Source of the DNA: Chiloscyllium plagiosum
Lineage: Eukaryota
NCBI RefSeq assembly: GCF_004010195.1
Contig: NW_025214591.1
Coordinates: 1 to 32,329 of the forward strand
DNA: 32,329 nt
Direction of reading: 5' to 3'
In this document: positions 28,675 to 29,429 of the stretch, piece after piece
Position numbering within the stretch: the stretch's first letter is position 1
Layout of the letters: every line of letters starts with the position of its first letter
Program-made: the position numbers and the translations under genes
The notes under the pieces: model-generated
Databases searched by the model: none
Told to the model about the DNA's origin: nothing
What the model saw: the letters and a program-made list of their open reading frames with translations, nothing else

Positions 28675-29016
28675 TTGGTATCTTTTCCAAGGCAGGTGTA
28701 CAAACCTAGGAATTCTCGCAACTCCTGCTGCCCAGCACAAAGATGGATAACTAAGCCATAACTAATCTCCCAGAAGTTTTAATATGTGCTAAAATAAGTT
28801 ATCATCTCAGATGGTCATAAGTCTGGATCCGTCAGACCTTCAGCAGGAATCTGTCTTGATGAATCATAACTAGAATTTTTGGAGTAATTTTCCATGGTGG
28901 CTAATCACATAAGGCTGCTGACATTCATTGATGAAATAACACAAGTTTTTACACAGAAGAACTAAATATTTGTGAGTCAATGTGAAAAACTCTTAACTAA
29001 GCAGCAAAGACATAAA

Positions 29017-29242
29017 GGAGGAGAAAGTGAGGACTGCAGATGCTGGAGATCAGAGCTGCAAATGTGTTGCTGGAAAAGCGCAGCAGGTCAGGCAGTGTCC
29101 AAGGAGCCGGAGAATCGACGTTTCGGGCATGACCCCTTCTTCAGGAATCCCCCTTCCTGAAGAAGGGCTCAAGCCCGAAACGTCGATTCTCCTGTTCCTT
29201 GGATGCTGCCTGACCTGCTGCACTTTTCCAGCAACACATTTT
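29017..29242. mobile_element. Near-perfect hairpin mini-PLE with one HHR on each strand
   Basis: Arms about 29055-29147 and 29154-29247 are reverse complements. CAGCAAA(G/A)ACATAAA occurs at 29002-29016 and 29243-29257. Confidence 0.88.
29154..29188 (+). ncRNA. Minimal hammerhead ribozyme motif with intact core (family A)
   Basis: CTGAAGA (29157-63), extra A, helix II GGGC-TCAA-GCCC, GAAA (29177-80), CG, then TC. Predicted cleavage after C29184. Confidence 0.78.
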
Positions 29243-29429
29243 CAGCAAAAACATAAATCCAGCTTTTTTTTTCTGTAATGGCTTTTTCCAATAGCCAATT
29301 CCAGAGAGAACATGCCTACCTTTACTCCTGAATTTTCTTTAATACTCTCCAGCTTTCCTTTTCAGCTTGCAAAACAGTTCGAAGGCATCTTTCAAGTTCT
29401 GAGAGCTTAGGTCTCTGATCAAAAGGCAA

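Follow-up and report, generated by a model that had tools for sequence, protein, structure and literature searches.

The window studied here, a 32,329-nt stretch of Chiloscyllium plagiosum contig NW_025214591.1, contains a small insert with two opposed termini of a Penelope-like element (PLE), and the question it raises is whether such a hairpin propagates as a unit or is what PLE insertion leaves behind. The hairpin is a genuine insertion, built from a pair of PLE terminal module copies in head-to-head orientation. We consider it probable that it is a single insertion, likely from one integration event and likely immobile as a unit; that it is an ordinary product of PLE insertion we regard as very probable. 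Coordinates are collected in Table 1.

Table 1. Features of the hairpin insert, of its sister inserts and of its source family in the window.
Feature	Positions	Strand	Remarks
Left TSD copy, 15 bp	29002..29016	+	Occurs once in the empty site of a related species (X9 record 17)
Inverted PLE terminal module copy (pLTR), 132 nt	29017..29148	-	Spans 4 nt upstream of hammerhead core to tail end
38-nt tail, only on inverted arm	29017..29054	-	Terminates 8/17 family pieces in window
Putative minimal type I hammerhead motif	29109..29152	-	C3 = 29144, C17 = 29117; helix II reduced to 3 bp
Five-C junction between arms	29149..29153	+	3/5 bases agree with element's upstream sequence; untemplated or mutated
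Direct tail-less module copy, 93 nt	29154..29246	+	Final 4 nt common to right TSD copy
Putative minimal type I hammerhead motif	29155..29186	+	C3 = 29157, C17 = 29184; helix II intact, helix I 2 bp
Right TSD copy, 15 bp	29243..29257	+	14/15 match to left copy
Sister insert	20390..20577		Exact 14-bp TSD; inverted tail-bearing arm 20404-20531; 31-nt tail-less direct arm; other junction
Sister insert	31319..31508		10-bp TSD with 1 mismatch; inverted tail-bearing arm, tail-less direct arm; other junction
Longer tail-less copy, young subfamily	1102..1481	-	356 bp, direct only; exact 12-bp TSD overlapping element end by 2 nt
Decayed RT + GIY-YIG Penelope-like ORF, older subfamily, source family	26239..27691	+	Module at 3' end

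By sequence inspection, 226 bp were found to be enclosed by two 15-mers (29002-29016 and 29243-29257) that differ by a single mismatch; when 20000 pairs of positions were drawn at random from the window, four matched at 14/15 or better. The insert contains an inverted repeat with 93-nt arms (29055-29147 and 29154-29246) that are 91% complementary and separated by a 6-nt spacer, and it folds with -174.3 kcal/mol (z = -20.3), a stability equalled by none of 200 shuffles. An earlier note had described an insert of about 225 bp with reverse-complement arms, which holds for its size and for these 93 nt and fails for 38 nt of the left arm. This arm measures 132 nt with only 93 nt mirrored, and positions 29017-29054 form an unpaired 'tail' that the right arm lacks. 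At the termini of the insert 5 of 20 terminal bases are complementary, and the right TSD copy begins with the same 4 nt that close the right arm. Over 93 sites the two arms show 8 differences (4.3% per arm).

Positions 28700-29420 were compared with four of 24 listed runs, three of them DNA contig sets and the fourth RNA; X15-X20, whose shares are small, were set aside. The evidence for an empty site is one contig from one run of organism B, a related species: X9 record 17 (672 nt, depth 25.4) matches 28700-29016 and 29264-29420 and has 7 letters between these flank matches, where 6 would be expected with a single TSD copy and 21 with both; the T run after the site can explain the one surplus letter. 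Since this empty site has a single copy of the 15-mer, the 15-bp duplication is a true TSD, as the earlier note had claimed, and the comparison with a relative that it had suggested yielded a clean orthologous site from which the insert is absent. The insert was therefore gained on the lineage of organism A, a clean loss in organism B being less likely. Flank divergence between organisms A and B amounts to 35 substitutions in 474 bases (7.4%). Flank contigs of X1 (organism A, possibly the assembly's own sample) enter the insert for about 20 letters from both ends, which fits its presence and stays under the 31-letter bridging rule, and those of run X3 end at 28958 and resume at 29293, which makes this run uninformative.

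The window holds 17 pieces of the hairpin's PLE family, and matches to the module and its upstream sequence cover 5.9% of it. All but one of these pieces (16/17) end at either of two 3' positions some 35 nt apart, eight with the tail and eight without. Seven start at most 9 nt upstream of hammerhead C3, where an even spread of starts along the module would give about one; two (28423 and the left arm of 31329) start at most some 5 nt past the predicted cleavage site, one starts far upstream, four inside the motif and three further downstream. The sequence upstream of the hammerhead is revealed by copy 1102-1481, and the same sequence forms the loose end of 185 RNA reads. This upstream part matches the end of the decayed ORF (27387-27461; 76% over 75 nt, E 3e-10); a module copy (27583-27691) comes after this ORF, and module identity to this older subfamily is 84%. 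The link from hairpin to RT + GIY-YIG ORF runs through an older, decayed subfamily copy. Pfam returned RVT_1 (E 0.006) and GIY-YIG (E 0.009) for the decayed ORF, both under the curated cut-off, and the ORF matched Atlas GIY-YIG/RT clusters at 0.95. It displays a YIGET motif and, at aa 185 of the 26459 ORF, the CxxC of a linker whose first C was lost in a decayed stretch. A CX2-5CxxC linker upstream of GIY-YIG is described as a mark of Neptune and Nematis (PMC8557442). Since the linker marks both, the family can be called Neptune-like only tentatively, the apparent linker remnant being shared with Nematis. Both arms are thus the terminal module of a GIY-YIG PLE, which bears out the proposal that the insert is retro-derived from two opposed PLE termini.

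A separate Penelope/Poseidon-type RT + GIY-YIG remnant adjoins the hairpin (29419-30500). This PLE (29419-30455) was rejected as source because it belongs to another family, lacks the linker CxxC and has its own hammerhead-like motif at 30452. An exact 21-mer of the module had no matches in metagenome contigs and none in viral contigs; its lone match in a prokaryote genome, 24 nt in a bacterial contig, was taken as chance. Several other arrangements of terminal modules were observed. At 27478-27691 an inverted tail-bearing piece lies inside the 3' UTR of the Neptune-like ORF, followed by a direct tail-bearing module, and this direct module at the 3' end is without the 5' half of the hammerhead. 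Three module pieces stand in series at 28423-28674 (+, -, +), with no TSD detected, and are probably nested insertions. Two further PLE-like terminal modules, which are more diverged, have left fold-back stubs at 7465-7685 and 4517-4705; 7575 possesses a hammerhead-like core of its own, in which helix II is longer. From module position 48 onward (29017-29148, -) an ATG-opened frame downstream of the hammerhead runs to the tail end; it is open without indels in three of five tail-bearing copies from two subfamilies, a fourth having a 10-nt deletion, and its ATG is mutated in the hairpin's left arm. This frame may be the N-terminus of the ORF, as in other PLEs. Elsewhere the window contains a 123-bp tandem duplication (97%) within a SINE-like repeat (20827-21070), a 474-bp tandem duplication of 98.7% identity that is possibly recent or an assembly artefact (23113-24059), and an N run, an assembly gap, between two PLE ORF pieces (~25240-25740). 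Many LINE fragments, which from protein motifs we take to be CR1/L2-type, lie at 4834-5399, 10459-10977, 12861-13964, 14471-16504, 18367-19271 and 31674-32329, several of them inverted.

A motif scan identified three hammerhead-like cores per strand of the window, two of which are the arms of the 29017 insert. Both arms contain CUGAAGA, one extra A, helix II and the GAAAC-GUC boxes, and display the core characters of minimal hammerheads (min-HHRs), namely an extra nucleotide after position 9, G10.1-C11.1 and a palindromic helix III stub. Where helix I of min-HHRs has 4-5 bp, the + arm has 2 bp and the source element 2 bp, a mismatch and 1 bp. On the - strand helix I forms 7 of 8 pairs, solely through the junction G run, and the closing pair of helix II was lost through a private change. 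Since Rfam, searched over the whole window at E<=1, gave no hammerhead match and three weak unrelated ones, the assignment is based on the motif scan together with what has been published on min-HHRs. A candidate minimal hammerhead on each strand, with a predicted C17 at 29184 on the + strand, thus agrees with what had been noted before, the core boxes being intact in both arms.

The likeness to published min-HHRs (PMC4209133) extends to core boxes, the extra nucleotide between 9 and 10.1, G10.1-C11.1, the palindromic 15.2-16.2 and a missing loop 3. Helix II has 4 bp here versus 7-8 in Schistosoma min-HHRs. Unlike published min-HHRs, the source element has a helix I of 2 bp plus mismatch, and the hairpin's motifs lie 12 nt apart, the published pairs on opposite strands being 100-700 bp apart. 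A variant with a 2-bp helix I is known in D. virilis, and the same source reports no cleavage for a single min-HHR and low cleavage for dimers, a same-strand partner being needed (PMC4209133). The motif of the anole element is described as protein-assisted and dispensable for insertion in vitro (PMC11167929).

Forcing the ribozyme fold onto the hairpin costs 51.0 (+) or 51.7 (-) kcal/mol versus 5.8 in the long copy 1102-1481, and at all ten transcript lengths the core had an unpaired probability of 0.001 in equilibrium folding, which does not describe kinetics. In the head-to-head layout the antisense arm is transcribed first in either direction. Given this order and a fold cost of about 51 kcal/mol, read-through would likely yield dsRNA rather than a ribozyme; the earlier expectation of one ribozyme from read-through in either direction finds no support in these predictions, in the 2-bp helix I of the + arm or in the need of min-HHRs for a same-strand partner. 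As passengers of the pLTR, the hammerheads are predicted to be locked in a 93-bp duplex in a read-through transcript. In RNA run X21, of which 2% was read, 2374 reads fell on the module, from many paralogues, and 185 extended upstream of it, as reads of longer copies would. In the same 2%, RNA depth was zero in 18/18 bins of the unique flanks, and RNA ends did not pile up anywhere on the stretch. Differences in these paralogue-mixed reads were A>G 10, T>C 17, C>T 17 and G>A 15.

Three TSD-bounded head-to-head inserts (29017, 20404 and 31329) occur in the window, and in all three the inverted arm bears the tail and the direct arm is without it. Their centres all differ and their TSDs measure 15, 14 and 10 bp. 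Across five TSD-bounded inserts the lengths are 10, 12, 12, 14 and 15 bp. No TSD was found for 7 of 14 intervals (4517, 28423, 28510, 28423-28674, 10282, 27478 and 27478b), and 7465 and 13975 had only weak 8-9-mer candidates; these nine older or compound copies were left out of the TSD-length count. Two adjacent tail-to-tail stubs at 1667-1880 were also observed, 1667-1757 (+) and 1777-1868 (-, with a 12-bp TSD and a 21-nt internal deletion), the hairpin of which (1691-1851) has a sub-threshold Rfam mir-609 match. Before 29018-29021, more than 1000 tail-bearing copies in each run have AT-rich flanks, in which a faint motif recurs 12-16 nt upstream; it is similar to the module's tail-less end (agreement only 0.33) and may reflect TSD length and target match.

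Insertions of EN+ PLEs are described as having, next to the 5' end, an inverted copy that is itself 5'-truncated, together with a tail of 30-40 bp at one of the ends (Craig et al. 2021, PMC8557442), and inverted-copy-plus-tail units with 8-10-bp TSDs are described in a rotifer (Arkhipova et al. 2013, PMC3846280). The hairpin likewise has a head-to-head inverted pLTR, a tail at one end (38 nt here) and a variable TSD around the unit. Unlike these complex insertions, its direct copy is only a 93-nt stub, so that a 226-bp unit without ORF results, and TSDs in the hairpin family are 10-15 bp versus 8-10 bp in the rotifer PLEs. The hairpin is a minimal instance of this published 'inverted copy plus tail' PLE architecture. 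With PAc, a Poseidon of Anolis carolinensis (Frangieh et al. 2024, PMC11167929), it shares two fixed 3' ends that bound the tail downstream of the hammerhead, AT-rich flanks and an absence of RNA reads ending at the cleavage site. The family here differs in having a CxxC linker remnant, which is Neptune/Nematis-like and not Poseidon-like, and in a tail-less end that often matches the target by 2-4 nt, PAc starting without homology in vitro (PMC11167929). Animal non-LTR retrozymes are similarly described as non-coding, PLE-derived and equipped with a type I hammerhead (bioRxiv 10.64898/2026.07.22.740005); they are head-to-tail tandems with same-strand ribozymes, whereas the hairpin is head-to-head with one motif per strand. 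No account of shark PLE hairpins was found in the literature searched; the supplements of PMC4209133 and PMC11167929 may list such elements.

For the origin of the hairpin as an ordinary insertion product we propose a two-ended priming scheme, whose details we hold tentatively and with the scales tipped slightly against them. A nick in the top strand would prime reverse transcription at the tail end, and a nick in the bottom strand would prime it at the tail-less site by means of the 4-nt match. Both cDNAs would halt just upstream of the hammerhead, after which their ends would be joined head to head through the five C. C-tailing at the cap is known for retroviral RT. The cDNA stop coincides with the A of TCATTC in the long copy 1102-1481, which fits the initiator consensus. 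Against an RNA start there speak the 185 RNA reads that extend upstream of the module, the lack of any pile of RNA ends and the two pieces that begin near the predicted cleavage site; of four arms that stop near the A of the initiator-like motif, only two have a G in front. Penelope is described as having a start site within its pLTR (PMC6765202, PMC2377424). For PAc, cutting and extension of both strands, a predicted dimer and RT starts at two internal sites bounding the tail are described (PMC11167929). It is conceivable, though we lean clearly towards doubt, that a dimeric PLE protein carries two separate RNAs, one primed per nicked strand at the two start sites on either side of the tail, and that each cDNA reaches a capped 5' end, located at an initiator directly before the hammerhead, whereupon the cDNAs join head to head; the arms could then stem from different loci. 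Module position 39, which is split about evenly in the family (55% C at 29195, X1; young copies 1112 C, 1777 T), is C in the left and T in the right arm of the 29017 insert, and the 31329 pair is discordant as well. Discordance in these two hairpins may be a weak hint at two templates.

The same PLE insertion could also have made its mirror half from one molecule, by self-priming or fold-back (snap-back of a cDNA end or an antisense template), a possibility we take seriously without expecting it to be right. According to PMC3846280, self-priming from palindromes is favoured at inverted junctions, on an antisense template. Two features of the arms agree with it: they share young-subfamily states at most variable sites, and their 8 differences in 93 nt (4.3% per arm) are consistent with the age given by the 7.4% flank divergence. 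Discordance at the evenly split position 39, known from two pairs only and at a site picked post hoc, and the 4-nt match of the right arm end to the target, which target priming would lead one to expect, argue against it. The hairpin could instead be a non-autonomous palindromic unit, a retro-MITE, that is transcribed whole and re-inserted by PLE protein, which we think quite improbable. PLE protein could indeed bind to the module found on either strand, the family occurs in great abundance (92,080 X1 contigs match it, at a depth 5-6 orders of magnitude above the flanks, which is not a copy number), and all three DNA runs contain one small joint close to the centre, from 29150 to 29187. At 29153, 81% of X1 depth has the family's A where the hairpin has C; the 19% without it (~14,000 of 75,779 summed) make other copies with a similar centre possible. 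Against propagation as a unit, one of the options in the earlier note, stand the different centres of all three TSD-bounded hairpins, the many joints each present in few contigs (best 15 of 598), the 8 private or variable arm differences with no sign of homogenisation, and the zero RNA depth in 18/18 unique-flank bins (X21, 2% read). No contig across the hairpin centre was found among the contigs listed. The other option in that note, a stereotyped insertion product, gains support from the constant tail/tail-less plan in three inserts with different junctions.

The likeness to a MITE, which had also been remarked on, does not extend to the ends. MITEs are small, non-coding, hairpin-forming elements with a TSD, their hallmarks being terminal inverted repeats and a TSD of short, fixed length. 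The hairpin is short and non-coding, folds strongly and is flanked by a TSD, yet it is of retro origin and lacks terminal inverted repeats (5/20 terminal bases), the tail being on the left arm only; its TSD is long (15 bp), TSDs of sister inserts vary between 10 and 15 bp, and the empty site is clean. A MITE-type DNA transposon derived from PLE sequence is thus hardly credible. Use by the host as a regulatory RNA, with read-through giving an active ribozyme or a functional edited or diced dsRNA, appears extremely unlikely to us. If transcribed, a duplex of 93 bp could plausibly serve ADAR or Dicer as a substrate, and the 7 of 8 helix I pairs gained by the - motif through the junction G run would speak for a ribozyme. 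However, the insert is lineage-specific and missing in organism B, a private change has impaired helix II in the - motif, the core is predicted to be paired at every length, RNA reads (X21, 2% read) do not cover the flanks, and X21 shows no A>G excess, a comparison that paralogue-mixed reads make uninformative.

As a likely one-off by-product of insertion, one among very many PLE stubs, the single locus matters little. The architecture itself was already known; what is new here is the empty orthologous site, and with both tail states in one insert the hairpin offers a clean, dated example for the unsolved mechanism of PLE integration. It is also a warning that PLE stubs can be mis-annotated as MITEs or, as the mir-609 match at 1691-1851 illustrates, as miRNA precursors. 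If double priming is true, the many young hairpins of this genome could decide how the inverted repeats and tails of PLEs form, to the disadvantage of the self-priming model in the literature. Many intronic hairpins of this kind are predicted to supply, together, double-stranded RNA.
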